Of a DNA stretch of 64,000 nt, positions 1,954 through 54,708 are shown piece after piece. Numbering within the stretch: position 1 is the stretch's first letter; each line of letters begins with the position of its first letter. Source of the DNA: Candidatus Spechtbacterales bacterium (GTDB lineage: Bacteria; Patescibacteriota; Minisyncoccia; Spechtbacterales; 2-12-FULL-38-22). The notes below the pieces were generated by a model. It searched no databases, was not told the DNA's origin, and was given only the letters and a program-made list of their open reading frames with translations. Both the position numbers and the translations under genes were made by a program. The stretch lies in NCBI GenBank assembly GCA_040879145.1, contig JBBDKX010000035.1, positions 1,122 to 65,121 on the forward strand, given 5' to 3'.

Positions 1954-3192
1954 ATGACACAAAGACACAACAATAGATCCTCAAACCGTTCGCGTTCCCA
2001 CAACAATAACCGGGGCTCATCTTCACGCCAAAACTATGGCGGAGGAAGAAGGCGCCATTCCGCTCCTCAAAATCGCGGAGGTCAAAGACAAAGCCTAAAT
2101 ATAAACACATTTATAAACAAGGCTGAAGCGATACAAAATACTGAAGAAAAAATAGTGCCAAAGCACAAATTCAGTGATTTTGCGATACACGAAAATCTAA
2201 AGCGTGCTATTGCCGCAAGAGATTTTACATCACCCACACCTATCCAGGATGAGGCAATACCTCATATCCTAAAAGGGCGTGACATTGTAGGGATAGCCAA
2301 CACAGGAACAGGAAAAACTGCAGCTTTTCTGATACCCCTTATAGACAAAATACTAAACAACCCTGACAAAAGGGTTCTTATTGTTACACCAACCCGCGAA
2401 CTTGCAAACCAAATACATAACGATGTAAGAAAACTTACGCCTCAAATGGGGATTTATTCTGTTTGTTGCGTTGGAGGAGCATCTATTGGTCCCCAGCTTC
2501 GTGACTTAAAGAGACGTCATAACTTTGTTATCGGAACCCCCGGACGCTTAAAGGACTTGATAGAGCGCGGAAACTTAAACCTTGCAAAGACAAGTACAAT
2601 AGTGCTTGACGAAGCAGACCGAATGTTGGACATGGGTTTTATTCACGACATGCGCTATCTTGTTGCAAGAATGCCCGAGCAACGCCATACGCTTTTCTTC
2701 TCAGCTACGCTTTCCAAAGACATTGAAAAACTTGTTAGCGATTTTCTGCGCGACCCTGTAACAGTGTCTGTAAAAACACAGGATACTTCAAAAAATGTTG
2801 ACCAGGATGTTATACGCGTAAACGGAAAAAACGCGAAGGTTGACGAACTGCACAACCTGCTCTTGCAGCCCGAATTTAATAAAGTACTGGTATTTGGCAG
2901 AACGAAGCACGGAGTTGAAAAACTATCTGTAGATCTTAGAAAACGAGGGTTTAAAACGGCCTCTATTCATGGAAATAAATCATACAACCAGCGTCAGAGT
3001 GCGCTCGGCTCATTCAAAGAAGACAGAGTACGCATACTTATAGCAACAGATGTTGCCTCCCGCGGACTTGATATTCCTGATGTAAGCCATGTTATAAACT
3101 TTGACATACCCAACACTTACGATGATTACGTGCACCGTATCGGCAGAACAGGCCGATGGGGCAAAACAGGAAAAGCTCTCACCTTCGTATAA
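1954..3192 (+). CDS. DEAD-box ATP-dependent RNA helicase with N-terminal R/S/N-rich region
   Basis: Q-motif TPIQ, Ax[29 protein letters not shown] motifs. Confidence 0.9.
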
Positions 3193-4982
3193 TGGAGATT
3201 AGAAATATAGCAATCATAGCCCATGTGGACCATGGTAAAACCACGCTTACAGACGCGATTATGCGCCAGACCGGCTCTACAAAGGAAGGTGTAAGTATGG
3301 ACTCCAACGATCTTGAGCAGGAACGCGGTCTTACGATTTACGCAAAAAACGCCTCCGTTGCATACAAGGGCACTAAAATAAACATAGTGGACACTCCAGG
3401 CCACGCGGATTTCGGTTCTGAAGTAGAACGGGTACTTCGCTCCATAGACTCCGTTATTCTTGTTGTGGACGCGCAGGAAGGTCCTATGCCACAAACCCGT
3501 TTTGTGCTTAAAAAATCGCTGGAACTCGGACACAAACCTATAGTTGTGCTAAACAAGATAGATAAGCCCGCGGCTAATCCGGCGCGCGCGCATGATGAAG
3601 TACTTGAACTGTTTTTTGACCTGGGCGCCGAAGAAGACCAGCTCAACTTTACAACAGTTTACGCAATAGGAGTAGACGGCGTTGCTATACGCGAGCTAAA
3701 AGACGAACGTAAAAATATAGAACCCCTACTGGATGTAATACTTGAAGAAGTTCCTCCCGCATCCGACAACAGTGAAGGGGCTTTAAAGGTGCAACCGTTT
3801 AACCTGGCGTACGATAACTTTCTCGGCAGACTTGCCATCGGCAGAATATACAGCGGTGTTTTAAAAGACGGCGCTAATGTTTTTATCAAAAAAGCTTCCG
3901 GCAAGATTGAATCAGGAAAAATAACAAAGGTTTTTACTTTTGAAGGAACTAACAGAAAAGAGGCGGCGCAGGCGCAAGCGGGAGACATTGTAATGCTCGC
4001 AGGACTGCCTGAAATTTATATAGGAGATACAATATGCGATTCTAAAGAAACAGAAGCGCTCCCTGCGATAGAGGTGGACGAGCCGACCATAGCTTTAAAT
4101 TTTTTAGTAAACAACTCCCCTTTTGCGGGGCGTGAAGGTAAATATGTAACAGGAAGGCAGATAAAAGACCGCCTGCTTAAAGAATTGGAGGTTAACGTTG
4201 GATTGCGCGTAGATTTTGAAGACGACCAAATGAAAGTGTACGGAAGAGGTGAACTACACATAGCCATACTTCTTGAAAACATGCGAAGAGAGGGATACGA
4301 ACTCCAGGTGTCACAACCCCAGGTAATAATAAAAGAAATAGACGGGGTAAAAAGCGAACCTTTTGAAGAGGTAATAGTAGATGTTCCGATGGAATCACAG
4401 GGAACAGTTATAGAAAAACTCTCACAAAGAGCTGTAATTATGATAGGAATAAAACAGGATGGTAACACTGTACGCCTTACTTTTGAAGGTCCCACCCGCG
4501 GGCTTTTGGGATACCGGGGACAATTTATAGTAGATACTAAAGGAGAGGGAATTTTTGCCAGTCGTTTTATAGGGTTCAAGCCACACGCGGGCAAGATACA
4601 AAAACGCAAGACGGGTTCCATGGCATCTATGGCAACAGGAAAAGCTCTTGGGTTTTCACTGTACAACCTGCAGGCAAGAGGCACTCTGTATATAGGGGCA
4701 AATACCGAAGTGTACGAAGGAATGGTAATAGGAAACACATCCAAAGGGGTAGACTTAGCGGTAAATCCCACAAAAGGGAAGCAGCTTACAAATATGCGCG
4801 CGAGCGGCTCAGACGATAACATATCCCTAACCCCACCCACTCCTGTCACAATAGAAGGCGGGCTGGAAATAATGCAGGACGATGAATATCTTGAAATAAC
4901 TCCAAAAAGCGTACGCCTGAGAAAACAACTCTTAACCGAAGTAGAACGGGCAAAGATAAAACGGCAGGAAAAATACGAATAA
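3192..4982 (+). CDS. typA: translational GTPase TypA/BipA
   Basis: [26 protein letters not shown]-motifs; ATG overlaps helicase stop (taATGg); ORF-track start 3156 is upstream of the likely ATG. Confidence 0.9.
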
Positions 4983-5004
4983 TCACACTCAATACCAAAA
5001 AAAT

Positions 5005-5039
5005 AAACGGGTCACTGCAGTGACCCGTTTATTTTTTTA
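5005..5039. terminator. rho-independent terminator (bidirectional)
   Basis: aaacgggtcactgcagtgacccgttt followed by T7; A-run on other side. Confidence 0.75.
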
Positions 5040-5055
5040 TAGTTAAATGTCGGCT

Positions 5056-5215
5056 TTACTTCTTTTCTGTTTCACCCTCTTCAGGCACTACTATCCAGGC
5101 AATAAGATATAAAATTACTCCGGGAAAAACACCCGTAAATACAACAGCCACTGCCATTATAAGCCGGAGTATGGTTGAATCTGTCTTAAGATACTCCCCT
5201 AATCCGCCGGCAATC
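5056..5215 (-). pseudogene. PspC-domain reading frame without own start codon (possible frameshifted C-terminal continuation of ORF 5199..5480)
   Basis: my translation of minus frame: RGIAGGLGEYLKTDSTILRLIMAVAVVFTGVFPGVILYLIAWIVVPEEGETEKK matches PspC family consensus; frame opens right after TGA, no ATG/GTG/TTG before domain. Confidence 0.4.
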
Positions 5216-5480
5216 CCTCTTCAATCCTTTTAGCTGTATTTTCTCTTTTGTTGACTATAATACCCCCGCCCGCTATATATTCATTACCGGACGATGTTTC
5301 TATTATTACAGGCATTGCCATGGAAGGTTCCTGAAAATATTTATTTTTACTCCACTCTATAACATCACCCGGCGTGCGAAATGTAATCGCGGTTTCTCCG
5401 TCTTGAAATCGCAATATTTCCTGATGCTGAAAAGATTCTTTTTCTTCAGAATTATTAAAATTAGGTTTTTCAAAATTCAT
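5199..5480 (-). CDS. hypothetical protein (93 aa), ends 1 frame off from downstream PspC domain
   Basis: ORF track; C-terminus ...KRIEEGLPAD* while shifted frame continues IAGGLGEY... Confidence 0.4.
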   Translation of the reverse strand: MNFEKPNFNNSEEKESFQHQEILRFQDGETAITFRTPGDVIEWSKNKYFQEPSMAMPVIIETSSGNEYIAGGGIIVNKRENTAKRIEEGLPAD

Positions 5481-5671
5481 ACATTAAAAATTAATTGTAC
5501 CTCTTTATAGTAGCAGATTAAAAACGAAATATAAATGAATTTTACTTCCCGTGGAGAGTGTTTAGATCTGATGAGGTCTGGCTTTGTAGGGTTTAGAGAA
5601 CTTAGGTATTTCATTAGACACCACACGCTTATATGAAATATAATAGATATGCTATAATTTAGTTAAATAGT

Positions 5672-6415
5672 ATGTCTAAAGAAAAAATACCAAAAATTGA
5701 AGATGTTGCGAATAAAGAAAATTGGGAAGATGCCAATGTAACATACGAATTTAAAGATGGTAAGTATATAGTGGGAAGGATAGAAATAACTGGATTAGAA
5801 TACTTATCCAAATTTGAAATGACTTCCGAGGAGGAAGATAAGTTTTTTAATGCTATATATAAATTATTTGCTTTAAATAATTTTAATCTGGAAGAAAAAG
5901 AGGTTGAACAAGATATAGGAAGAGAACAACCTATACGAAAATTGGTAAGAAAAATTACAATTAATTTTTCGCCTGAAGCTCCAAAAAAGTGGTACCAAGA
6001 ACACAAAAAGGAATTAGTGATTACTGGTAAATGGAATCAAAGTGGTCAAAATATTAAGCCTGACCCCTCAATTTTAGATAAGCAGAAAGAGTTGAAAGAT
6101 ATGTATCCAGATACATACCCTGGGGAATATAAAGACCCTTCAGAAGGGTTTATGGAAGAATATACAGGAAGTGTTACTATTTATCCAAATAATATTTCAG
6201 ATAAATCTGAATTATATATAACTACTTTTCATGAGCTGGCTCATGTAACTCAAAAATGGCAGGGTAGAAGTTTCATGTTAAATACGCCTATTGGCGCAAA
6301 ATACGGAGAAGAACCTCACGAGGTTGAGGCTGAAAATGTAGGCAAAAAATTTGCAGAAATGTTATTAGAATCAAAAAATAACAAAAAACATAAAACTAAA
6401 TTTAAAAAAAGATAA
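5672..6415 (+). CDS. hypothetical protein with HExxH motif (HELAH) and Lys-rich C-terminus; AT-rich gene
   Basis: 247-aa ORF, TATAAT-like box upstream, terminator downstream. Confidence 0.5.
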   Translation: MSKEKIPKIEDVANKENWEDANVTYEFKDGKYIVGRIEITGLEYLSKFEMTSEEEDKFFNAIYKLFALNNFNLEEKEVEQDIGREQPIRKLVRKITINFSPEAPKKWYQEHKKELVITGKWNQSGQNIKPDPSILDKQKELKDMYPDTYPGEYKDPSEGFMEEYTGSVTIYPNNISDKSELYITTFHELAHVTQKWQGRSFMLNTPIGAKYGEEPHEVEAENVGKKFAEMLLESKNNKKHKTKFKKR

Positions 6416-6431
6416 AAACAGTAAATAAAAT

Positions 6432-6460
6432 AATAGCCCTTAAAGGGGCTATTATTTTTT
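6432..6460 (+). terminator. rho-independent terminator
   Basis: aatagcccttaaaggggctatt + T6. Confidence 0.6.
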
Positions 6461-6485
6461 AGGTTAAAAATTAGGTGTCTCGGTC
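6455..6485. repeat. 31-bp direct repeat copy 1 (ttttagg(g)ttaaaaattaggtgtctYggtc)
   Basis: near-identical to 7536..7567. Confidence 0.7.
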
Positions 6486-6638
6486 TGTAAAACTTGCTAA
6501 ATATAAATATTTATGATATATAAAGACAAACCTCCAGAGCTTGTTGTAGTCATTATACCTCGCAATTTAGGGAATTGCGAGGGCTCATTATACCGTGCTT
6601 AAAAGGAGTGCGGTATCGACAAGCAAAGGAGATAAGCC

Positions 6639-6986
6639 ATGTCCGAAAAATACGTAGAGAACCCAAGCAACTTGAATAAATTCGATCTGGTGCAAAGCGG
6701 AAGAATAGAATTGGGAGTAATAGTCAGCGATCCCTTTTCTGTGAGCTGGCATGAACATGGTCCAATAGGTGATCCTAGTTCTTATGCTCTCGTAAACGAT
6801 AACATGGTCGTTGTTTGGCTTCCTCTGGAATCACGCACAGAGCTTTGCAGAATTGATAATCTGAATCTACTTAGCGTAGATATTGAAGATCTAAAACAGC
6901 GTTTTTCTGACCTTGTGTCAGATGCGTTGTTGGATGCTCATAGGCTTCGCGCAGCTGCCGATGCGATAGGTGAAAAGAAAGCATAG
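6639..6986 (+). CDS. hypothetical protein (115 aa)
   Basis: strong SD aaaggagataagccATG; terminator follows; higher GC than flanks. Confidence 0.55.
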   Translation: MSEKYVENPSNLNKFDLVQSGRIELGVIVSDPFSVSWHEHGPIGDPSSYALVNDNMVVVWLPLESRTELCRIDNLNLLSVDIEDLKQRFSDLVSDALLDAHRLRAAADAIGEKKA

Positions 6987-6999
6987 TTAGTTCTTTCTA

Positions 7000-7027
7000 C
7001 AGCCCTCTATTAGAGGGCTGTTTTTTG
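7000..7027 (+). terminator. rho-independent terminator
   Basis: cagccctctattagagggctg + T6. Confidence 0.7.
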
Positions 7028-7046
7028 TTATTGTTCCACAAAAATA

Positions 7047-7535
7047 CTATTCTAATGTAATCTTCTCCGGAGATAAATCTTCAAACTGTTCTTTTGAGTA
7101 AACACCGATACCTCTTAGCTGATTTTCCTCTCGTGTACTTGTTGTAAAAAGAGTAATGTGAGGCAGTGGAACTTCCAGATCAAGTCCTAGGATCAAATTT
7201 AACTGCGTATAAAATGTGGCGATATCCGACAAATCTATTAACTGGATATAGGATTCTCTTATTTCTGGCTGCCCTTCATCACTCTTGCTATCTTCCTCTT
7301 CGTAGTTTTTAGTGATGTGATAATATTCGGGTTTGAAAGAAAAAGACTAATTTAAATCTTGTGCGAGTTGTTCGATTTTGTTTAACAGTTGTTTCTTTTT
7401 GTCTTCGGGGAATAAATTTAATTTTTCTAAAATAGCTTCACCGGTTCTGCTTCCAATTAAAGTGAGATGGAATTCACTCTTCTCAGAAAGCCCTTCAATT
7501 TCTGCCTGGTTCAAGACGGTAAAGGCTTCTCGGGA
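7047..7535 (-). pseudogene. 2H-phosphoesterase (LigT/ThpR-like 2'-5' RNA ligase) gene with in-frame TAG and missing 5' end
   Basis: my translation: ...SEKSEFHLTLIGSRTGEA...QDLN*SFSFKPEYYHITKNY...VPLPHITLFTTS...; two HxT/S motifs, one continuous frame interrupted by TAG at 7343-7345; N-terminus cut by repeat copy 2. Confidence 0.5.
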
Positions 7536-7567
7536 TGTTTTTAGGGTTAAAAATTAGGTGTCTTGGT
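7536..7567. repeat. 31-bp direct repeat copy 2
   Basis: gtttttagggttaaaaattaggtgtcttggtc vs copy 1. Confidence 0.7.
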
Positions 7568-7576
7568 CGGATAGAA

Positions 7577-8377
7577 TTATTCCAATTTATTTCGAACCAC
7601 CTTCTCTTTCGCCTCGGATTCTATCTCTTGCCAATCCTCTTCACTAAAATGCCTTTCGTCACCCTCACGACGATAGTAATGCAGCCAATTTGTATTTTCT
7701 GAATATTTTTTATACATAACATTCAGCAAATTAGAGCTCACAGGATTAAGACCGAGTTGGCGCTCAATTTCCTCTACCTTTTCTACACTATTTGATTCTA
7801 TTTCTGCTGTGTATCCATAGCCGGTTACATTTTGTATATCTATTTGAGTATCTGCATCTATCTTATACAATTTTCTTCTGCTAGTCCAAATGGAGGTTTC
7901 TTTGGGCCCTAACTTGTATAATGCTTTGGAACATTCATACACATAGTCCCCATCAACAACAACATTGATCTCTACACGTTCTACATCATGCAACGGATTC
8001 TCACTCGCTTTAAATGTAAGCTCAATACTCTGAATAATATTATTTTCATCCAATCTCCCTCTAAGTCGAAGCTGTATGCGTATATCATCGGGAAGATGTG
8101 TTAACTGCTTTATTAAACTATCTACTCCCGCCATATAGTCAAAATTGAGTTTTTCCGCAAATTCCAAGGCCTGCTCTTTATTCATGGACTCATAAAAACG
8201 AGAGTCCTCATGATATTCTCCTATCATCTTGGTATTAGGAAAAAGAGATACTATTTTATCTTCTAACTTTTCTAGATCTTCTTCGGAAGCTAGTAAATAT
8301 TTACGCTCTATTTCTAAGCTGGGTTCGCGTTCTTTTGGATTAACTTCTGCTTCTTTTTTAGGAAATGATTCATCCAT
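7577..8377 (-). CDS. CYTH-domain protein (triphosphate tunnel metalloenzyme/class IV adenylyl cyclase-like) with C-terminal extension
   Basis: N-terminal EIERKYLL signature, RLRGR, ExE motifs near C-end of domain. Confidence 0.55.
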   Translation of the reverse strand: MDESFPKKEAEVNPKEREPSLEIERKYLLASEEDLEKLEDKIVSLFPNTKMIGEYHEDSRFYESMNKEQALEFAEKLNFDYMAGVDSLIKQLTHLPDDIRIQLRLRGRLDENNIIQSIELTFKASENPLHDVERVEINVVVDGDYVYECSKALYKLGPKETSIWTSRRKLYKIDADTQIDIQNVTGYGYTAEIESNSVEKVEEIERQLGLNPVSSNLLNVMYKKYSENTNWLHYYRREGDERHFSEEDWQEIESEAKEKVVRNKLE

Positions 8378-8448
8378 ATATTTTTATTACTTTTAATACC
8401 CTCCCGGTCACTTGCCCGTCCGTCCTTTGACGGGAACTAGCACATGAG

Positions 8449-8467
8449 TGTTGCCTCGCAGGGATTC
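8449..8467 (-). repeat. 19-bp duplicate of tRNA-Gln 3' end (tgttgcctcgcagggattc)
   Basis: identical to 8663..8681 in same orientation. Confidence 0.8.
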
Positions 8468-8662
8468 CGGGCTTCGCCCTAGAACCCTCGCTCTCTTCGT
8501 TCGCTCTTTGAAACCCCTCGGTTTCAACGCTATGCGCCTAAAGGCGCAAAACGGCATCCGCCACAGGGAACCGCGGTTCCCCGACCCCCTCCGCAGGTTC
8601 GAATCCCTGCTGTCAAAAAACCAGTATAATTTTAGCGGGATTAAACCCGCTAAAATTAACTA
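8468..8662. other. GC-rich structured segment with tRNA-like T-arm fragment (ggttcgaatccctgc, inverted) and several hairpins; possible pseudo-tRNA/att remnant
   Basis: hairpins gggaaccgcggttccc, tgcgcctaaaggcgca, gaaacccctcggtttc, agcgggattaaacccgct; cannot be folded into a canonical tRNA. Confidence 0.35.
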
Positions 8663-8664
8663 TG

Positions 8665-8735
8665 TTGCCTCGCAGGGATTCGAACCCCAGTTTTCGGTTC
8701 CAGAGACCGACGTTCTACCACTGAACTACGAGGCA
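8665..8735 (-). tRNA. tRNA-Gln (anticodon CUG)
   Basis: hand-folded: U1-A72 acceptor TGCCTCG/CGAGGCA, D-arm GTTCAGTGGTAGAAC, anticodon loop CTCTGGA, T-loop TTCGAAT; no encoded CCA. Confidence 0.7.
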
Positions 8736-8850
8736 ATATGTACAAATTTTTTAAAAACTTCTCTTCAACTACGGGGCAATGAACATTTTGTATCTTACCT
8801 TAATCAATATTCTTTATCAAGAAAAAGCCCCACAAAAAATGCGAGGCTCG

Positions 8851-8933
8851 TGCCGGAGGCGGGATTTGAACCCGCACGCTCATAGAGCAACGGAGTTTAA
8901 GTCCGTCATGTCTGCCTATTCCACCACTCCGGC
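8851..8933 (-). tRNA. tRNA-Leu (anticodon UAA), class II with long variable arm
   Basis: acceptor GCCGGAG/CTCCGGC, anticodon stem ACGGA/TCCGT loop CTTAAAC, variable hairpin, T-arm GCGGGTTCAAATCCCGC. Confidence 0.8.
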
Positions 8934-8980
8934 AAGGAACAAAGTTTTCTGCTTCGCATAAACATTTATGCGAAGTTTCG

Positions 8981-9052
8981 TGCGCGCGGCTGGGATTGAA
9001 CCAGCGACCTCCTGCGTGTAAGGCAGGCGCTCTTCCGCTAAGCTACGCGCGC
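8981..9052 (-). tRNA. tRNA-Val (anticodon UAC)
   Basis: acceptor GCGCGCG, anticodon stem CCTGC/GCAGG loop CTTACAC, T-arm GCTGGTTCAATCCCAGC. Confidence 0.8.
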
Positions 9053-9071
9053 AGTTTGCGAAGTGAAATAA

Positions 9072-9263
9072 TCACTTCTTTTTCTTATCTCTTTTTTCCT
9101 TGATGAGGAATCCCCGCCTCGCGCCTTCCGCGCGGGAAAGAGGAAATGGTTTGCCGTCATTTGCGGCAACAATTTCTTCCGCCTCATGGCGGGGCATTCC
9201 GCGTTGAACCATTGCCTCAACCCACTCTTCGCGGGTTAAGACCTGTACTTCGTTATCACTCAT
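9072..9263 (-). CDS. small hypothetical protein (63 aa, Lys-rich C-terminus)
   Basis: ATG overlaps stop of upstream small ORF (gATGAgtgataa); embedded in tRNA array. Confidence 0.4.
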   Translation of the reverse strand: MSDNEVQVLTREEWVEAMVQRGMPRHEAEEIVAANDGKPFPLSRAEGARRGFLIKEKRDKKKK

Positions 9264-9453
9264 CTTCACTCCTTTCTTTCTTGTACTTAGGGCAGACACG
9301 TGCCGCGCCTTCTACCCCTCCCGCAACACGGTCTTTCGTATTCTCCCGACAATAATCACACTGTATGACATGCCGGAACATTCTTTCATTTTCTTGGCGC
9401 GCCTCACGCACCTGTTCCGCGAGTGTCTTTTGCATTGTTACCTCCATACTCAT
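9256..9453 (-). CDS. small hypothetical protein (65 aa) with CxxC-x18-C zinc-ribbon-like motif, possible DksA/TraR-like
   Basis: coiled N-part AEQVREARQENERM then CDYC...VCPKY. Confidence 0.35.
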   Translation of the reverse strand: MSMEVTMQKTLAEQVREARQENERMFRHVIQCDYCRENTKDRVAGGVEGAARVCPKYKKERSEDE

Positions 9454-9469
9454 ACAAGGAACCGTCTCG

Positions 9470-9544
9470 TGCCCCCGGCAGGATTTGAACCTGCGACTTT
9501 CGGATTAGAAGTCCGATGCTCTATCCGGACTGAGCTACAAGGGC
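9470..9544 (-). tRNA. tRNA-Arg (anticodon UCU)
   Basis: D-arm GCTCAGTCCGGATAGAGC, anticodon stem TCGGA/TCCGA loop CTTCTAA, T-arm GCAGGTTCAAATCCTGC. Confidence 0.8.
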
Positions 9545-9616
9545 GTAGTATCCCCTCGCCTCTATTTTAGAGGCGAGGGGTTCGTCCTCCTTCTCGTAAA
9601 GATACGGAAGGACACG

Positions 9617-9689
9617 TGGGTCGTCAGGGAATCGAACCCTGAACCTTCGGGTTAAAAGCCCGCTGCTCTGCCAATTGAGCTAACGACCC
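9617..9689 (-). tRNA. tRNA-Lys (anticodon UUU)
   Basis: acceptor GGGTCGT/ACGACCC, anticodon loop CTTTTAA, T-arm CAGGGTTCGATTCCCTG. Confidence 0.8.
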
Positions 9690-9727
9690 GTGTGTAGCCC
9701 GCTGTCATTTATGACAGCGGGCTTGCG

Positions 9728-9802
9728 TGCGCCCGGCTGGCTTTGAACCAGCGACCCCCACTTTATAAGAGTGGTGCTCTCACCAGACTGAGCTACGGGC
9801 GC
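9728..9802 (-). tRNA. tRNA-Ile (anticodon UAU)
   Basis: acceptor GCGCCCG/CGGGCGC, D-arm GCTCAGTCTGGTGAGAGC, anticodon stem CCACT/AGTGG loop CTTATAA (34-36 = TAT). Confidence 0.7.
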
Positions 9803-10891
9803 CTATGAATCCTTTTCAGGACATAAAGCCACCACAGCGAGTTCAAGCGGTAGTTGCGGCAAGGGTGCCGTTTTCACACTATTGCTTGCTGTAATGAACT
9901 CGCGTATTATATCATAAATTTGTTTTTCCGTCAATTTTTGAGCCCCTAAAGAGGCGGTTTCCGCTTCTTCAGCTGTAAAATTAGCAGTAAGCATCTCTTT
10001 TGAAGACGGACTGAGTTTTAAAAGTAGTAATGTCCGCGCATACTCAATTACATTATTCGCAAACTGACGCATATCCCCTCCCTCTTTATTTAAATTATCT
10101 ATAAACTTAATTGCTTCTTCTTTTTTTAGTTCCGCTATTAGGCCGGTGAAAGAGGCGATTTTTTCAAAATCTGTAACTCCAAGAAGAGAGCGAGCTTTTG
10201 TAGCATCTATATTTCCAACAGAAAGCACCTTGCCTAAAATACTTTCGGCATCACGCAAAGAACCTCCTGAAGCGGCAACTACAAGGCGAATAACATCGTC
10301 ATCAAGTTTTTTATTCTCGCGTTTTATAAGATCACCCAATCTTGTGGTTATCTCTTCTGTGTTTAAATAACGAAAATCAAACCTCTGTGTTCTTGATATT
10401 ATGGTGGGCAAAACCTTATGAGGCTCTGTTGTTGCCAGTACAAAAACCACATGCGCGGGAGGCTCTTCAAGTGTTTTCAAAAGCGCATTAAAAGCATCTT
10501 TTGATAACATGTGTACCTCGTCTATTAGATACACTTTGTACTTTCCTTTGTTGGGTGAAAATCTAACTGCCTCTTTCAACTCTCTTATATCATCTATACC
10601 CCTGTTTGACGCGGCGTCTATCTCTATCAGGTCAACAAAAATTCCCTCGTCTACTTCACGACAAACTTCGCATTTAGCGCATGCCTCACTTTTTTGCTCC
10701 ACACAATTTAAAGTTTTCGCGAAAAGCCGTGCAGTTGTGGTCTTGCCCGTCCCTCGCGGTCCTGTAAACAAATAGGCATGGGCAACCTCATCCATCTTTA
10801 CCGCGTTTTGAAGCGTTGTAATTACATGTTCCTGCCCAACAACTTCACTAAAAGTTTTCGGACGATATTTTCTATATAGTACTTTAGACAT
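9803..10891 (-). CDS. dnaX: DNA polymerase III subunit gamma/tau (short form)
   Basis: YRPKTFSEVVGQ, GPRGTGKTTTARLFAK, zinc module CxxC..CxxC, SRTQRF. Confidence 0.9.
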   Translation of the reverse strand: MSKVLYRKYRPKTFSEVVGQEHVITTLQNAVKMDEVAHAYLFTGPRGTGKTTTARLFAKTLNCVEQKSEACAKCEVCREVDEGIFVDLIEIDAASNRGIDDIRELKEAVRFSPNKGKYKVYLIDEVHMLSKDAFNALLKTLEEPPAHVVFVLATTEPHKVLPTIISRTQRFDFRYLNTEEITTRLGDLIKRENKKLDDDVIRLVVAASGGSLRDAESILGKVLSVGNIDATKARSLLGVTDFEKIASFTGLIAELKKEEAIKFIDNLNKEGGDMRQFANNVIEYARTLLLLKLSPSSKEMLTANFTAEEAETASLGAQKLTEKQIYDIIREFITASNSVKTAPLPQLPLELAVVALCPEKDS

Positions 10892-10893
10892 AT

Positions 10894-11050
10894 AAATATT
10901 TATAAAGATTAAAATTTATTTACACAATATAATTTAAAATATCGTCCGAGGGAAGGGGTCGGGAAACGGAAGTTTCCCGTGGCGAATGTCGTTTTGCCCT
11001 GAGCTTGCCGAAGGACGACGGTCGCTATTTTCTATATAGTACCTTACTCA
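10894..11050. other. dnaX upstream region: 27/31-bp duplicate of dnaX start (encodes MSKVLYRK*) plus ~85-nt GC-rich structured element with GGAA-capped hairpin
   Basis: 11020-11050 atgagtaaggtactatatagaaaatag vs real start atgtctaaagtactatatagaaaatat; hairpin gggaaac-ggaa-gtttccc. Confidence 0.5.
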
Positions 11051-15506: not shown

Positions 15507-16370
15507 TTACTCAGAATTATTACTCTTTTCAGTATCAATTATCCTTATATTCTCTTCGGCGAGTTCCCAAAGCTGCCTGCGCGCTTCTTGTTCCGCGTTC
15601 TTGCGCATACCAGCGACAATTTCTTCCGCTTCCTCGCGCGACTGCCCCGTTGATTCCACAATACTCTCTATGAGCTCTTCGGTCATCTCAGGAGAATAAA
15701 AACCTGTTTCAAAATCTCTGGCAATATGCTCTTCTATCATTCGCTCCATGTCAAAAAGGGCGACTATCTGCTTTCCCATATGTCTTTTTTCCGGGGAAAC
15801 CATTCCGACAGCGCGCCTTGATGCCACAGCCCTTTCGGCAAGCAAAATCTCGCGTTCGTACCATCCGACAAGAATGGTAAGGTGCATGCGCAGCGAGTGT
15901 CCGCAAGGCAGAAATTCAGACGCTCTTCCATCTTCCTCGCAGTCTCCATTTCCACAAGGACATCCCGAAGATGTTTGCCCAAGCTCTTTTCCCGCCTTTT
16001 CGAGCAAGTCTTCCAATTCCTTAATCCTGTTAGTTTTCAGATACTCATTCTTCACAAATATCTGATAAAAAGGAATAAGTGAGGTAAAAAATCCAACATC
16101 GTCACCTGCAGGGGTAACATTAATACCCGGGGGCAGTTCCAAGTCGCTATTTGCGAGCTTATACGCGTCATTTACAACTCTGAAAGTCTCCAAAAAAGTC
16201 TTAACTGTAGTATTGTCGCCGGAAATTAGCTTATCGCGAACCATTGTGTCCAGAATGTCATAGAAGACATGTGCTTCAAAAGCGCCAAACCTCCAAACTT
16301 CTCCGGGCAGCGGTTCTCTGACAGAATTATCGCGTACAAAGTTAAAGATAGATTCTTCAGAAATTCCCAT
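15507..16370 (-). CDS. hypothetical protein with central Cys cluster (CPCGNGDCEE...CGH)
   Basis: ATG at 16370 with SD aaggagg 8 nt upstream; ORF track extends to 16436. Confidence 0.5.
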   Translation of the reverse strand: MGISEESIFNFVRDNSVREPLPGEVWRFGAFEAHVFYDILDTMVRDKLISGDNTTVKTFLETFRVVNDAYKLANSDLELPPGINVTPAGDDVGFFTSLIPFYQIFVKNEYLKTNRIKELEDLLEKAGKELGQTSSGCPCGNGDCEEDGRASEFLPCGHSLRMHLTILVGWYEREILLAERAVASRRAVGMVSPEKRHMGKQIVALFDMERMIEEHIARDFETGFYSPEMTEELIESIVESTGQSREEAEEIVAGMRKNAEQEARRQLWELAEENIRIIDTEKSNNSE

Positions 16371-51341: not shown

Positions 51342-52883
51342 TTAACGCGACCAGATAAATTTAATGGTTTCAAGTTTGCCTGTTAAAAACAACTTCATAA
51401 GATACTTTGTTACAACCATCGCGGAGAACATGCTAACAACAATACCCAGCCCCAGCGTTAAAGCGAACCCCTGCACGAAACTTGTTGAAAACCAAAACAG
51501 TATTACAGCAGTGAGCAGGGTTGATATGTTTCCGTCTCTTATTGAAGGCCACGCTCTTTCAAACGCCTTATCTACAGCATAAGACACATTTTCAACATCT
51601 CTTAACTCTTCCCGCAAACGCTCAAAAATAAGCACATTGGCATCTACGGCCATTCCAATAGACAGTATAAGACCTGCTATTCCGGCAAGTGTGAGTGTAA
51701 TAGGTATTGTCTTTATAAGCGCCAGGATAAACGCTATGTACATCAAAAGAGAGACAGCCGCTAAAAGACCGCTAAAACGATACATAATAACTATAAACGC
51801 GAGAACTGCCAAAACAGCTATGGCTCCCGCACGCAGGCTTGCCGCAAGCGACTCTTCACCGAGCGCGGCGCCTATTCTCTGTTGGGCTATAATGCTTATC
51901 GGAACAGGAAGCGCTCCCGCGTTTAGGTTTCGTACGAGCTCTCTTGCCTCATCTACAGTAAAGTTTCCGGTTATAACAGCTTGTCCGCCCGCTATTGCCT
52001 GGTTTACTGTAGGAATAGAAACAGGTGTTCCATCAAGATATATAGCAACTACAGAACCGATATTTCTCTTTGTTATTTCCTCAAACAACTCCGAACCCTC
52101 TTCATTAAACTGCAACCCTATTTGTAGCTCTCCGGTCTGCGGATGTGTCGTCACACTAGCCCTTTCTAAAAATTGTCCCGTGAGACTTGTACTTCTAAAA
52201 CACGGGTCTTCTCCGAGTATCTGGGTAAATGTCGCTATTCCCTGAGTATTGGCGCCGCTACAAATACTTGCAATCTGTTGGTCGCTAATCTCTCCTTGTT
52301 CTTCCACAAATCCGGATAAAACCTGAGACAGCGCCTGTTTTTGTTCTTCAAAAGGTCTTACCTCTTTGAACTCCAAAAACGGAGTCTGTCCTATTTGTTC
52401 TATGGCCTTATCCGGGTCGCTTATTCCCGCAAGTTCAACTATAAGGCGTGATGAATCATCACCCTGCTCTATTTGCACCACAGGTTCTGAAACCCCAAGG
52501 AAGTTAACTCGTCTTTCTATCGCGTCGCGTAAAGATTCCATAGCATCCTTCTGGTCGCTTTCTCTTATGCCGGAGAGATTGGCTTCATATACCAGGTGGA
52601 TGCCACCCTGCAAATCAAGACCTAAAGAGTAAGGACTTTCAGAGAATTTAGGAACGCGTGCAAAATTATCAATGGCGCGTAAAACTCCCCACTTGTCATA
52701 CTGTCCCACGTACCGGTTTGCATCTACAGCTTCCAGTTTAGGGTTTGACCAATCCGCAAACTGGTTCCAGTATTTAGGGTAATCTAAATTAGCCGCAAAA
52801 AATGCGGCAATCAAAATTAGAAATACAAATATCCAAGTTTGTCCTCTCTTTGTTGGTTTACGAAAAAGTCGCTTCAAAAACAT
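51342..52883 (-). CDS. secD: protein translocase subunit SecD
   Basis: GLDLQGGIHLVYE periplasmic domain, C-terminal 6 TM; ATG at 52883 (ORF track TTG start 52937). Confidence 0.9.
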   Translation of the reverse strand: MFLKRLFRKPTKRGQTWIFVFLILIAAFFAANLDYPKYWNQFADWSNPKLEAVDANRYVGQYDKWGVLRAIDNFARVPKFSESPYSLGLDLQGGIHLVYEANLSGIRESDQKDAMESLRDAIERRVNFLGVSEPVVQIEQGDDSSRLIVELAGISDPDKAIEQIGQTPFLEFKEVRPFEEQKQALSQVLSGFVEEQGEISDQQIASICSGANTQGIATFTQILGEDPCFRSTSLTGQFLERASVTTHPQTGELQIGLQFNEEGSELFEEITKRNIGSVVAIYLDGTPVSIPTVNQAIAGGQAVITGNFTVDEARELVRNLNAGALPVPISIIAQQRIGAALGEESLAASLRAGAIAVLAVLAFIVIMYRFSGLLAAVSLLMYIAFILALIKTIPITLTLAGIAGLILSIGMAVDANVLIFERLREELRDVENVSYAVDKAFERAWPSIRDGNISTLLTAVILFWFSTSFVQGFALTLGLGIVVSMFSAMVVTKYLMKLFLTGKLETIKFIWSR

Positions 52884-52937
52884 ACCTTGAATATGATAAT
52901 TAAGTTTACAAAGAAAATCAAGGGGGTTCATCCCCAA

Positions 52938-53012
52938 GCCGGTTCATTTTAGCCGGTCGGACTCTTTCTTCCGACCCCTTTACTTCCAACCTTACTATAA
53001 GTCCTATTCTTC
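52938..53012 (-). promoter_or_regulatory. promoter-like module with TA(A/T)AAT box, hairpin ggtcggaagaaaNagtccgacc and ATAGGAC 9-bp repeats, upstream of secD
   Basis: near-identical module at 53715..53813 upstream of ssrA. Confidence 0.5.
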
Positions 53013-53029
53013 AAAAACAAAAAGCACCA

Positions 53030-53285
53030 CATTTAAGTGGTGCGAAGAACATTAGGTGGCTGCACTCTCCCGTTACTCAAGCGGAAGAGTGCAGCATTTC
53101 CAACGCCGACAGCTTCGCTGTCGGGCATCCTCGATTGCTTTGCAATCGGGACAAGTGCCGAGGTCGGAAAAATTAGGCCGCGCGCCCCCGGAGAAAGGGT
53201 GAAGAGCCCAGAAGGGGCGCGCGACCTATAGGGCGAGTGCGACTCAGTGTCCGCCATCACAGTGAGAGCAGAACGGCACAGGCCC
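53030..53285. other. GC-rich 250-nt segment with 5+ stable hairpins immediately 3' of tmRNA; candidate structured RNA or terminator cluster
   Basis: gctgcactctcccgttactcaagcggaagagtgcagc, cgacagcttcgctgtcg, gcgcgccccc...ggggcgcgc, gcaccacttaaatgtggtgc. Confidence 0.3.
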
Positions 53286-53643
53286 TGGTGGAGGTGCCGG
53301 GAATTGAACCCGGGTCCGGCGTAATATTCATAAGCGTTTTAGTTTACGTGCGTTGACTCCGTAAAATTTCGGAAGGGTTATACAGAGACAGATTCACCTT
53401 TCCTATCCGTTGTTCAGTGTCCCTTGCAAAGCACTTCGGAAAAAGCTTTGCTTCGGCAAGCACTCTGGTTCTTCTTAGCTTAGAATGCGTGGGCTAAGAA
53501 GCTGGTTGCTCTTTCAGGCGGCAGCCAGGAGGCCTCTGCTATTTGTGGCAGTTATATGTTTCCAGCGACGGTTTACGAGCACACGCTGGTTTCTCGGCAC
53601 GAGTTCTTAGTTTCAACGACACCGTCGAGACCAATTCACCCCC
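53286..53643 (-). ncRNA. ssrA: tmRNA (SsrA), one-piece, CCA encoded
   Basis: 5' GGGGGUGAAUUGGUCUCGACG..., 3' ...GGACCCGGGUUCAAUUCCCGGCACCUCCACCA; acceptor stem pairs. Confidence 0.9.
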
Positions 53644-53714
53644 ATGAGTTTAAAGGTACAATTTGTGTGGACCGGTTTTTGACAGAAACCAGTCCGGAAA
53701 AACTGCGGCAAGTA

Positions 53715-53813
53715 TCAGTTGCCGGTTCATTATAGCCGGTCGGACTATTTCTTCCGACCCCTTTACTTCCAATCATCCTATAGGTCCTATTCGTCCTATA
53801 GGTCCTATTCTTC
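53715..53813 (-). promoter_or_regulatory. promoter-like module (TATAAT box + hairpin) with four ATAGGAC 9-bp tandem repeats, ~95 nt upstream of tmRNA 5' end
   Basis: ggaagtaaaggggtcggaagaaatagtccgaccggctataatgaaccggc; gaataggacctataggacgaataggacctataggat. Confidence 0.5.
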
Positions 53814-53935
53814 AGAAACAAAGGGGTTGTGGAGACACTTAAGGCGGTCTCCATTTGCCTTTCTTTGCTTTCTTCCTATATGGCAAAGAACTACACGTTT
53901 TTAGGGCGGTCTCTTCCGTGCGCCGCCAGGCCGCT

Positions 53936-54238
53936 TCAGACGGGTTGCAGTTGGTCCGGGTCAACAATGACAAGTCTCGTAGACTTGCCCTGCTTCCGGT
54001 CCAACTCCACCGTGTAGTTCGGGAAGTCCAGAATCTCTGTTCCGTTCTTTTCCGTCACGGTGGTGATACCGGCAACTGCCGGACAGCGGTGTTCGTCGGG
54101 AACTCCGACGACCACACCCTGAAGGGTGCCCCGGCGAGTGCTAACCACCCGGCGATGTAAGCTCTCATTGAGAGTAAGCACCTCAACCGGAAGGATAACG
54201 AACACGCGCGTTCCCACCTGAAGTCTATTTTCGGCCAT
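53936..54238 (-). CDS. hypothetical protein (100 aa) in GC-rich segment
   Basis: strong SD ttaaggaggtgaaATG; no family recognised. Confidence 0.5.
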   Translation of the reverse strand: MAENRLQVGTRVFVILPVEVLTLNESLHRRVVSTRRGTLQGVVVGVPDEHRCPAVAGITTVTEKNGTEILDFPNYTVELDRKQGKSTRLVIVDPDQLQPV

Positions 54239-54239
54239 T

Positions 54240-54560
54240 TCACCTCCTTAAGGTGTTGTGAAAGGTTCAAGGGAAGAGGTTTCGGAATAACTGCCGCGTT
54301 CGCTTTGTTATCCTACTTCCTCTCCCCCGCATTTAAACCCAGTCAAGTAATTCTGCCGCGGCCTGAGTGCTGGGTCACCCTCAAGCTGCAGAGCCGGTCA
54401 AAATTCGGACACCACTACCACCGACAGGCAATGTGGTTCCTACTCTGCTTCCTCAGAAGCATTCAGATAAACACAGTTCCTGTATTCATCTAAATACCGC
54501 CGATTATTAAAGATTGAGTGCCGCCGGCGCTCAATTCCAGTAAGCAGCAGACTACTGGAA
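54240..54560 (-). other. ~320-nt GC-rich highly structured leader/ncRNA candidate upstream of the 100-aa ORF
   Basis: 12-bp stem ccgccggcgctc/gagcgccggcgg with nested ccagta..tactgg hairpin, further helices. Confidence 0.35.
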
Positions 54561-54708
54561 GAGCGCCGGCGGAACCTGTAAGGATGTTAAACACCCCAAA
54601 CCTTAAGAACGAACTACATTATAGCATTTATGTATAAAAAAGTCAACACCCACGACACTATATAGAATGAATTCCTCATTAATTTTCAAATATGCTATAG
54701 TAGAACAT

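Follow-up and report, generated by a model that had tools for sequence, protein, structure and literature searches.

An AT-rich patch between typA and tRNA-Gln in a Candidatus Spechtbacterales genome carries an intact triphosphate-tunnel metalloenzyme gene beside a dead 2H-phosphoesterase gene

We analysed a stretch of 64,000 nucleotides (nt) of the Candidatus Spechtbacterales bacterium assembly GCA_040879145.1 (contig JBBDKX010000035.1, positions 1,122 to 65,121 of the forward strand; hereafter the window) and, within it, a patch at 5481–8447 that carries an HExxH protein gene, a 115-amino-acid (aa) open reading frame (ORF), the remnant of a 2H-phosphoesterase gene and a CYTH, or triphosphate-tunnel metalloenzyme (TTM), gene. 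An earlier note made from the sequence had described these four genes, all of which are present where it placed them, and had pointed to the tRNA array at the end of this islet as a common kind of integration target and to a decaying RNA-repair or nucleotide-signalling module of LigT-like and CYTH genes. The patch is preceded by typA (3156–4982, +) and a PspC-domain gene (5056–5480, −), and followed by a six-tRNA array (8664–9802, −) and dnaX (9803–10891, −); on the right it stops 1 bp short of a 19-nt duplicate of the 3′ end of tRNA-Gln, 216 bp from that tRNA gene itself. We favour, with moderate confidence, the reading that it is a mosaic, partly decaying accessory patch in a slot of variable gene content, which runs from typA to tRNA-Gln, the latter on the dnaX side. 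It does not form a working RNA-repair island, and its genes probably have no collective function. The features of the patch and its borders were as follows.

5056–5480, − strand: PspC-domain gene split by a 1-nt frameshift near 5205–5215, in a G run (translations of two frames)
5484–5498, + strand: repeat R0 (TTAAAAATTAATTGT), 13 of 15 bases as in R1 and R2, 3 bases from the left patch border
5615–5644, + strand: promoter-like site, TAGACA, 18 nt, TATAAT (11/12 consensus; consensus scan)
5672–6415, + strand: HExxH protein, 247 aa, Lys/Glu-rich (13.8% Lys), about 30.5% G + C (ORF, alignment)
6427–6458, both strands: bidirectional terminator-like hairpin, 13-bp stem with T/A runs on both sides, 3′ of the HExxH gene
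6455–6485, + strand: repeat R1 (TTTTTTAGGTTAAAAATTAGGTGTCTCGGTC), 31 nt, direct repeat family D4
6639–6986, + strand: orphan ORF, 115 aa, 43% G + C
6999–7021, no strand assigned: terminator-like hairpin 3′ of the 115-aa ORF
7047–7553, − strand: 2H-phosphoesterase pseudogene; HLTL and HITL motifs, one in-frame TAG (7347–7349; translation, alignment)
7538–7568, + strand: repeat R2, 31 nt, separating the CYTH stop codon from the 2H pseudogene
7577–8377, − strand: CYTH/triphosphate-tunnel metalloenzyme, intact, 266 aa (motifs, AF2 model, Foldseek)
8449–8467, − strand: perfect 19-nt duplicate of the 3′ end of tRNA-Gln, covering the discriminator and the 3′ strands of acceptor and T-stem
8500–8625, + strand: GC-rich structured segment, an inverted copy of an element upstream of dnaX (10918–11042, −); fold z-score −5.2
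8627–8658: terminator hairpin on the 3′ side of tRNA-Gln
8664–8735, − strand: tRNA-Gln(CUG), last gene of the six-tRNA array (ARAGORN, Rfam)

The AT-richness claimed for this region was confirmed. The G + C (GC) content of the patch was 35.3%, against a mean of 41.9% (standard deviation 1.8, minimum 38.2; z = −3.6) for 2967-bp windows across the rest of the 64 kb, which makes it the lowest-GC 3-kb stretch of the whole. After base-composition normalisation it was also the strongest tetranucleotide outlier (z 3.9), one of two in the 64 kb, the other being the tmRNA region. GC content was uneven inside the patch: 29% in the spacer at 5481–5671, about 30.5% in the HExxH gene, 43% in the 115-aa ORF (the higher GC that had been pointed out for it), 36.6% in the 2H pseudogene and 36.3% in the CYTH gene. 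At third codon positions (GC3), measured against 60 ORFs (mean 0.381, standard deviation 0.059), only the HExxH gene was a clear outlier (0.219, z −2.7, the lowest of the 60), the CYTH gene (0.308) and the 2H pseudogene (0.343) lying within the normal spread; the windowed GC and codon-usage check proposed in the earlier note thus found an atypical composition with outlying GC3 for that gene alone. The residues K, E, N, I, Y and F make up 50% of the HExxH protein and 44% of the CYTH protein versus 34% of TypA and DnaX, so that much of the AT excess of these two genes stems from amino-acid composition. Scans of all patch proteins against Pfam, NCBIfam, PHROGs and PADLOC returned nothing at threshold.

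The intact CYTH protein is identical to the NCBI entry WDZ40_03595 of a Candidatus Spechtbacterales MAG (metagenome-assembled genome), which places the genome in the candidate phyla radiation (Patescibacteria), and belongs to a small, lineage-restricted subfamily. A word-indexed search of 5.8 billion proteins returned six clusters at 90% identity including its own, the other five being 42–55% identical to it and the closest (55%) coming from another Spechtbacterales MAG. The tunnel domain spans approximately residues 20–212 and is followed by a conserved helical C-terminal extension of ~55 aa (~213–266). The ExExK motif reads EIERK (residues 22–26), and E22, E24, K26, R104, R106, R108, K123, E133, E136, E192 and E194 are invariant in the six-member alignment. 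The AF2 model built from the family alignment (predicted local distance difference test score, pLDDT, 84; predicted template-modelling score, pTM, 0.81) showed a β-barrel tunnel fold, for which Foldseek retrieved 7nsf (SaTTM) from the PDB at 4.8e-10, followed by 2een (PH1819), 1yem and 3n0z, with template-modelling (TM) scores normalised to the target of 0.64–0.76; the leading matches include Pfu-838710 and the Yersinia class IV adenylate cyclase (CyaB). The family profile also detected 2een (PH1819) among PDB sequences at E 1.3e-4. Pfam PF01928 gave no match to the 266-aa protein at E ≤ 1, hence none at its gathering score, and matched three of the six subfamily members below threshold (best E 2.1e-4). 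The family guess made from the letters alone is therefore borne out by the invariant motifs, the model and the matches to SaTTM, PH1819 and CyaB, and the C-terminal extension then described as unusual is real and conserved across the family, with M221, Y222, Y225, W231, Y234, R242, F244, W249, E251 and E253 invariant.

Two published criteria separate functional classes of this superfamily: cyclases have “HF” four residues ahead of ExExK and have lost the central Arg, and thiamine triphosphatases have the Trp of WxRxR (Vogt et al., PMC8233210). The protein does not look like a class IV adenylate cyclase (CyaB), as the residues preceding ExExK are E-P-S-L and R104 and R106 are invariant, nor like a thiamine triphosphatase, as the Trp position of WxRxR is occupied by Q, T, A or V across the family. 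The E-P-S-L sequence, the retained Arg residues and the missing Trp point to an activity of the tri/polyphosphatase or NTP-phosphohydrolase type. The protein would act as a stand-alone two-metal triphosphate-tunnel hydrolase, in which the metals would be held by E22/E24 and E192/E194 and the phosphates by K26, R104/R106/R108 and K123, the likely substrate being inorganic tri/polyphosphate or an NTP-like compound. It resembles the tri/polyphosphatases of the SaTTM, PH1819 and CthTTM type in ExExK, the Arg/Lys lining of the tunnel and the C-terminal ExE, and its predicted fold resembles those of known CYTH/TTM structures (PF01928), with best matches of 5e-10 to 1e-8. It differs from known CYTH/TTM proteins by two helical insertions and by the ~55-aa extension past the usual plug helix, and lies below all Pfam and NCBIfam thresholds.

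The CYTH gene had a GC content of 35.4–36.5% in all four genomes compared, always below that of the neighbouring genes, so its AT-richness appears to be intrinsic to the gene. In one related contig (L009), the CYTH gene lies two genes from a DEAD-box helicase gene whose product is 60% identical to that of the helicase gene at 1954–3192, 4.4 kb from the CYTH gene here. This single case of linkage suggests long residency, and the CYTH gene is probably a long-term resident of the neighbourhood.

The 2H-phosphoesterase gene directly 3′ of the CYTH gene, on the same strand, is inactivated. Its frame is closed upstream by a TAA at 7554–7556 and has no ATG start, and relatives carry 20–45 further N-terminal residues that are missing from the pseudogene together with the start codon; a search beside repeat R1 did not find the missing 5′ part. 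At the position of the in-frame TAG, no fewer than 90% of 103 relatives have Trp, which makes the change a TGG to TAG, one transition. The loss by a TAG and a 5′ truncation read from the sequence in the earlier note therefore stands. Recoding of TAG was dismissed because TAG ends other genes in the window, for example the 93-aa ORF in the left flank and the 115-aa ORF.

Intact relatives numbered 21, with lengths of 158–265 aa (mostly ~170–200 aa) and 37–52% identity; alignment to those of 172–265 aa, at 38–51% identity, placed the TAG on the Trp. An exhaustive profile search returned 751 representatives of the family at E ≤ 1e-3, mostly from Patescibacteria. H40, H140 and T142 were the sole invariant columns in the alignment of 103 sequences, T42 being conserved in at least 90%, which gives two HxT motifs ~100 residues apart. 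The model of an intact relative (P0009; pLDDT 95.8) had predicted β-α lobes, with weak but consistent fold matches in the PDB (TM 0.3–0.43) to drCPDase, Acb1 and a phage phosphodiesterase, and its BFVD matches were almost exclusively annotated as Acb1, “2′-5′ RNA ligase superfamily”, “Swiss Army Knife 2H phosphoesterase” or “cyclic phosphodiesterase”. Pfam 2H-SAK (PF22547) scored 23.8 bits for the family, short of its 27-bit cut-off (E 5.7e-5), and hit four of the 103 members, and PF13563 (2_5_RNA_ligase2) hit two of the 103, below threshold; the translated pseudogene had no match in Pfam. Orthology with ThpR/LigT was ruled out, hhalign aligning 33 columns at the second motif with a probability of 1.7%. 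The gene is “LigT-like” in the loose superfamily sense of HxT motifs and fold matches, and is not a ThpR/LigT orthologue. It represents a divergent, uncurated branch of the 2H superfamily, of which the copy here is dead. The family shares two HxT motifs with the known members (ThpR/LigT, CPDase, Acb1, PF22547) and may share their β-α lobes; it differs from them in having no curated model and low TM-scores, and in that the copy here is a pseudogene.

The neighbours of intact 2H genes were peptide deformylase and RsmH genes; SelR and SpoU genes; and, in the loci L093 and L094/L095, nitroreductase, NUDIX and pyrophosphatase genes or NUDIX, NADAR, histidine-phosphatase and low-molecular-weight phosphatase genes. 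The NUDIX, NADAR, histidine-phosphatase and pyrophosphatase neighbours point to nucleotide or ADP-ribose-phosphate turnover rather than RNA repair as the probable ancestral role. Domain fusions of the family, limited to a PRK/uridine-kinase-like domain and a methyltransferase, were uninformative. One relative, P0019 (L010/L011, 6001–6588), carries three TGA codons in frame, of which at least two stand where relatives have Gly, which makes genetic code 25 (TGA = Gly) probable there; these codons were rendered as Trp in the source translation.

The CYTH and 2H genes were not paired in the other contexts examined. In profile searches of six-frame translations of all CYTH and 2H loci, none of the three other distinct CYTH contexts held a 2H gene and none of the four other distinct 2H contexts held a CYTH gene, so their adjacency here is most likely fortuitous. 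RNA ligase, kinase or cyclase genes of the Pnkp-Hen1 or RtcA/RtcB type were absent between typA and dnaX. The proposed LigT plus CYTH module thus finds no support in gene context or in partner genes. The CYTH contexts comprised an HExxH-like gene, a 133-aa gene, a peptidase M23 gene and CYTH (L002/L003); CYTH followed by a gene for a conserved 136-aa protein (L005/L006); and CYTH, the 136-aa gene and the DEAD-box helicase gene (L009). This 136-aa protein, encoded 3′ of CYTH on the same strand (L005, 9921–10331; L006, 1302–1772; L009, 969–1379), had no Pfam or PADLOC match and is absent from the 64-kb window; it may be a functional partner of the CYTH subfamily. A link between HExxH and CYTH through L002, where an HExxH protein is encoded 1.3 kb from CYTH, was rejected, the likeness to the protein here being confined to 29 residues at the motif (E 0.0017, probability 15%).

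The other two genes, for the HExxH protein and the 115-aa ORF, lie in the left part of the patch. The HExxH protein (5672–6415), identical to the NCBI entry WDZ40_03575 and Lys-rich as had been noted, has three relatives with 51–53% identity by BLASTP (55–56% in the alignment), and the four-cluster family keeps H187, E188 and H191 of the HELAH motif (HELxH), as well as several Glu residues further downstream, without change. Its only matches were sub-threshold (DUF6782, E 0.029; phrog_10499, 0.004), and comparison with solved structures in the PDB gave no relative. The protein may be a small zinc peptidase of the zincin type that works in the cytoplasm and whose gene came in as a cassette. The predicted promoter-like site lies 27 nt 5′ of its start codon. 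The gene has a GC content 11 points under the 64-kb average, while that of its relative in L096 is not below that of its own contig; it is the only patch gene that looks compositionally foreign, and we infer a foreign origin for the cassette. The 115-aa ORF had no match in Pfam, NCBIfam, PHROGs or PADLOC and was without a relative in all loci retrieved; it is perhaps not a genuine gene.

Short direct repeats mark the boundaries of these units. R1 and R2 are 90% identical and their flanks do not align; a 24-nt core shared by the two had no matches in shuffled sequences. The 15-nt core pattern TTAAAAATTANNTGT has three occurrences when both strands of the 64 kb are scanned (0.02 expected), always on the + strand, with copies starting at 5484, 6464 and 7547, all at block boundaries; its background was five matches in 2.1 Mb of related loci, or ~1.2 per Mb of strand. 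R1 and R2 exactly bracket the 115-aa ORF and the 2H remnant. The units between copies measure 980 bp and 1083 bp and make up the left two-thirds of the patch, and deleting one repeat copy with the enclosed DNA would leave a convergent pair in the order HExxH, terminator, repeat, CYTH stop. The position of the repeats at unit boundaries suggests that the two ~1-kb units arose by stepwise insertion or recombination at one short site: an HExxH cassette that brings a promoter and a terminator, and a unit of the 115-aa ORF and the dead 2H gene, would have been inserted one after the other. A circular-element model for the second unit failed, because the missing 5′ end of the 2H gene is not beside R1.

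A more far-reaching and clearly speculative version, which we hold to be very unlikely, is that the three same-strand TTAAAAATTA(GG/AT)TGT copies are attachment sites, at which ~1-kb cassettes were added serially in a tRNA-proximal hotspot by a recombinase encoded elsewhere. If true, a candidate-phyla-radiation genome would be gaining cassettes in an integron-like or Xer/dif-module-like way. Judged by what is generally known of integron cassettes and Xer-dependent dif modules, the patch seems alike in its ~1-kb units of one or two genes parted by one short direct sequence; it differs in having no attC-like palindrome, no IntI or other recombinase nearby, and three copies of which one is degenerate.

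On the tRNA side, the 19-nt sequence occurs as two copies only in the 64 kb (8449–8467 and 8663–8681; 0 expected), which enclose 195 bp (8468–8662) on the tRNA-proximal side, outside the patch. No third copy, even a decayed one, was found at the left edge or elsewhere (≤ 3 mismatches, local alignment), and no recombinase or integrase among all ORFs of 5.0–8.4 kb, which were listed and profile-scanned. Should the duplicate mark an integration, it was the GC-rich piece of 195 bp that went in and not the patch; the duplicate looks like an att scar left by an integrated element that was very small or has been deleted. The integration of the patch at the tRNA gene suggested in the earlier note is accordingly not supported, given the lack of an integrase, what the repeat pair encloses and the missing left copy. 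The patch is like tRNA-linked genomic islands in its atypical composition beside a tRNA gene and in the 19-nt duplicate of the tRNA 3′ end, and unlike them in that an integrase is absent, the duplicate is on the tRNA-proximal side and the distal border is unmarked.

The slot itself is variable among relatives. In three of them (L017, L052 and L082), dnaX and a single tRNA-Gln are followed 3–8 kb on by typA on the same strand, and the intervening genes are a transglutaminase-like gene, a zinc-ribbon gene and an orphan in L052, and TfoX, ABC ATPase, GIY-YIG and HI0933 genes in L082. The interval from tRNA-Gln to typA is thus a variable slot, its genes differing in every genome, and the equivalent slot of L052 includes a stretch of 28% GC. 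Here, unlike in the relatives, dnaX and tRNA-Gln point towards typA, and five more tRNAs lie between dnaX and tRNA-Gln. Among 80 typA loci of related genomes none contained any patch gene; the best TypA identity was 82% and synteny was not conserved. Searches of metagenome contigs gave no match to the exact tRNA-Gln 71-mer and, with DnaX, matches of at most 53% identity dominated by a generic motif. As such the patch is a fairly ordinary variable region.

In the mosaic reading, the CYTH gene would be an intact long-term resident of the slot, the 2H gene would have been killed by the Trp-to-TAG change and the loss of its 5′ part, and the left units would stem from stepwise insertion or recombination. 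The 19-nt tRNA-Gln duplicate, the inverted element otherwise found upstream of dnaX and the frameshifted PspC gene would be recombination scars around the patch. Enzyme substrates and the order of events are both inferred from the sequence. Several points weigh against this account. The whole patch is a tetranucleotide outlier, as would also be expected had it come from one foreign source; R0 has a length of only 15 nt and two mismatches, and its significance was judged post hoc, and no recombinase acting on the repeats was identified. The CYTH–helicase linkage comes from one distant contig, and with no close relative found (best TypA 82%), both the insertions and the residency of CYTH are without the support of an empty site. 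The disruptions (one substitution and one homopolymer frameshift) could be sequencing errors, and the sole second assembly, Logan contig L001 (identical over 5009–8533), probably derives from the same reads.

Against the mosaic reading stands, as one alternative, a horizontally acquired islet at tRNA-Gln with a decaying CYTH plus 2H operon for RNA-end processing or nucleotide signalling. The two genes share a strand and are separated by ~20–60 nt that hold no terminator; members of both families work on RNA ends or on nucleotides that carry phosphates (PMC8233210, PMC4201822); composition and tetranucleotides mark the patch as an outlier; and the tRNA-Gln 3′-end copy lies exactly at the right border. 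However, there is no integrase in the patch, the tRNA repeats enclose 8468–8662 and have no counterpart at the left edge, the pairing is absent from all other contexts examined, and a ligase, kinase or RtcA/B-type partner is missing. CYTH being AT-rich at 35–36% GC in every carrier genome and linked to the same helicase in L009 also speaks against a single foreign islet, and we consider this alternative quite unlikely. A purely vertical history, in which a poorly constrained stretch drifted AT-rich and the repeats arose by local duplication or slippage, would account for the AT-richness of CYTH in all carrier genomes, for the very low GC content at second codon positions (0.28) of the HExxH and CYTH genes, which reflects amino-acid composition, for the large share of the 3 kb taken up by pseudogenes and 29–35% GC spacers, and for the equivalent slot of L052, which also goes down to 28% GC. 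It does not account for the HExxH GC3, the lowest of the 60 ORFs (0.219, z −2.7), while the relative in L096 is not AT-rich for its contig, nor for the absence of all four gene families from the 80 typA neighbourhoods, nor for repeats lying exactly at unit boundaries; we find it unlikely, if still worth considering.

An assembly artefact, either a 3.5-kb piece mis-joined from another population or organism or a TAG and a frameshift that are sequencing errors, appears very unlikely. The Logan contig, from the same run, covers 5009–8533 only and breaks near the palindromic terminator and in the repeat-rich segment, so that the junctions to typA and tRNA-Gln are without independent confirmation; the position of the frameshift in a G run and the atypical composition would also fit such an origin. 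But both disruptions are exactly reproduced in the second assembly, the closest CYTH relative comes from the same order, the CYTH–helicase linkage of L009 matches a helicase outside the Logan piece, and the 19-nt repeat is shorter than usual assembly k-mers. Taken against these three alternatives, the mosaic, partly decaying patch remains the reading that we favour.

For annotation, the CYTH protein can pass from “hypothetical” in every profile library to a CYTH/TTM triphosphatase with a lineage-specific C-terminal extension, and a family of ~750 representatives, mostly from Patescibacteria, can be placed in the 2H phosphoesterase superfamily. The occurrence of the latter beside NUDIX, NADAR and histidine-phosphatase genes offers a lead to nucleotide or ADP-ribose-phosphate metabolism in organisms with a very reduced metabolism. 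The CYTH and 2H families are new, divergent members of well-known superfamilies and leave current understanding unchallenged. The locus also shows that tiny candidate-phyla-radiation genomes keep small, variable and decaying patches by tRNA genes.

The GC-rich element at 8500–8625 consists of the hairpin GGGAAC..GTTCCC followed by GACCCCCTCC. It is 81% identical to the dnaX-upstream element over 47 nt by blastn, and the likeness is longer by covariance model; the inverted copies at 8500–8625 and 10918–11042 thus bracket the tRNA array and dnaX. A third copy was seen at 16135–16265 (−) of L066, a distant Paceibacterota contig, with a terminator after it. Rfam had no family for the GC-rich segment 8448–8662 on either strand, and in 1.4 Mb of related loci a covariance model of the three copies detected no others. 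The element may be a small RNA or a recombination substrate, as a candidate for either.

The five further tRNAs between tRNA-Gln and dnaX (Ile-UAU, Lys-UUU, Arg-UCU, Val-UAC and Leu-UAA) all read A-ending codons. tRNA-Ile(UAU) was found near typA in five related loci, so it seems normal for the group. Between tRNA-Val and tRNA-Arg, at 9072–9453 (−), are two small ORFs of ~50% GC, one of 65 aa with a CxxC...C arrangement and one of 63–75 aa, which overlap by 8 nt (ATGAGTGA) if the second starts at an internal ATG (63 aa). Neither had a family match. A viral origin was set aside, as the small array ORFs and the GC-rich element had no match in viral contigs.

In the left flank, the PspC-domain gene is divided into a 93-aa N-terminal ORF (5199–5480) and a PspC domain in another frame reaching to 5056. 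The joined frames matched Pfam PspC at E 1.3e-15, and the first start codon within the PspC frame is residue M of a 33-aa ORF; the split may be genuine, making the gene a pseudogene, or stem from a sequencing error in the homopolymer. Between typA and this gene, at 4997–5038, is a perfect 21+21-nt palindrome (AAAAAAATAAACGGGTCACTG / CAGTGACCCGTTTATTTTTTT), which is probably a bidirectional terminator and inside which the Logan contig breaks. The second tetranucleotide and GC outlier of the window, at 51500–55000, surrounds the tmRNA gene (53286–53643) together with a 101-aa ORF of 57% GC at 53855–54160.

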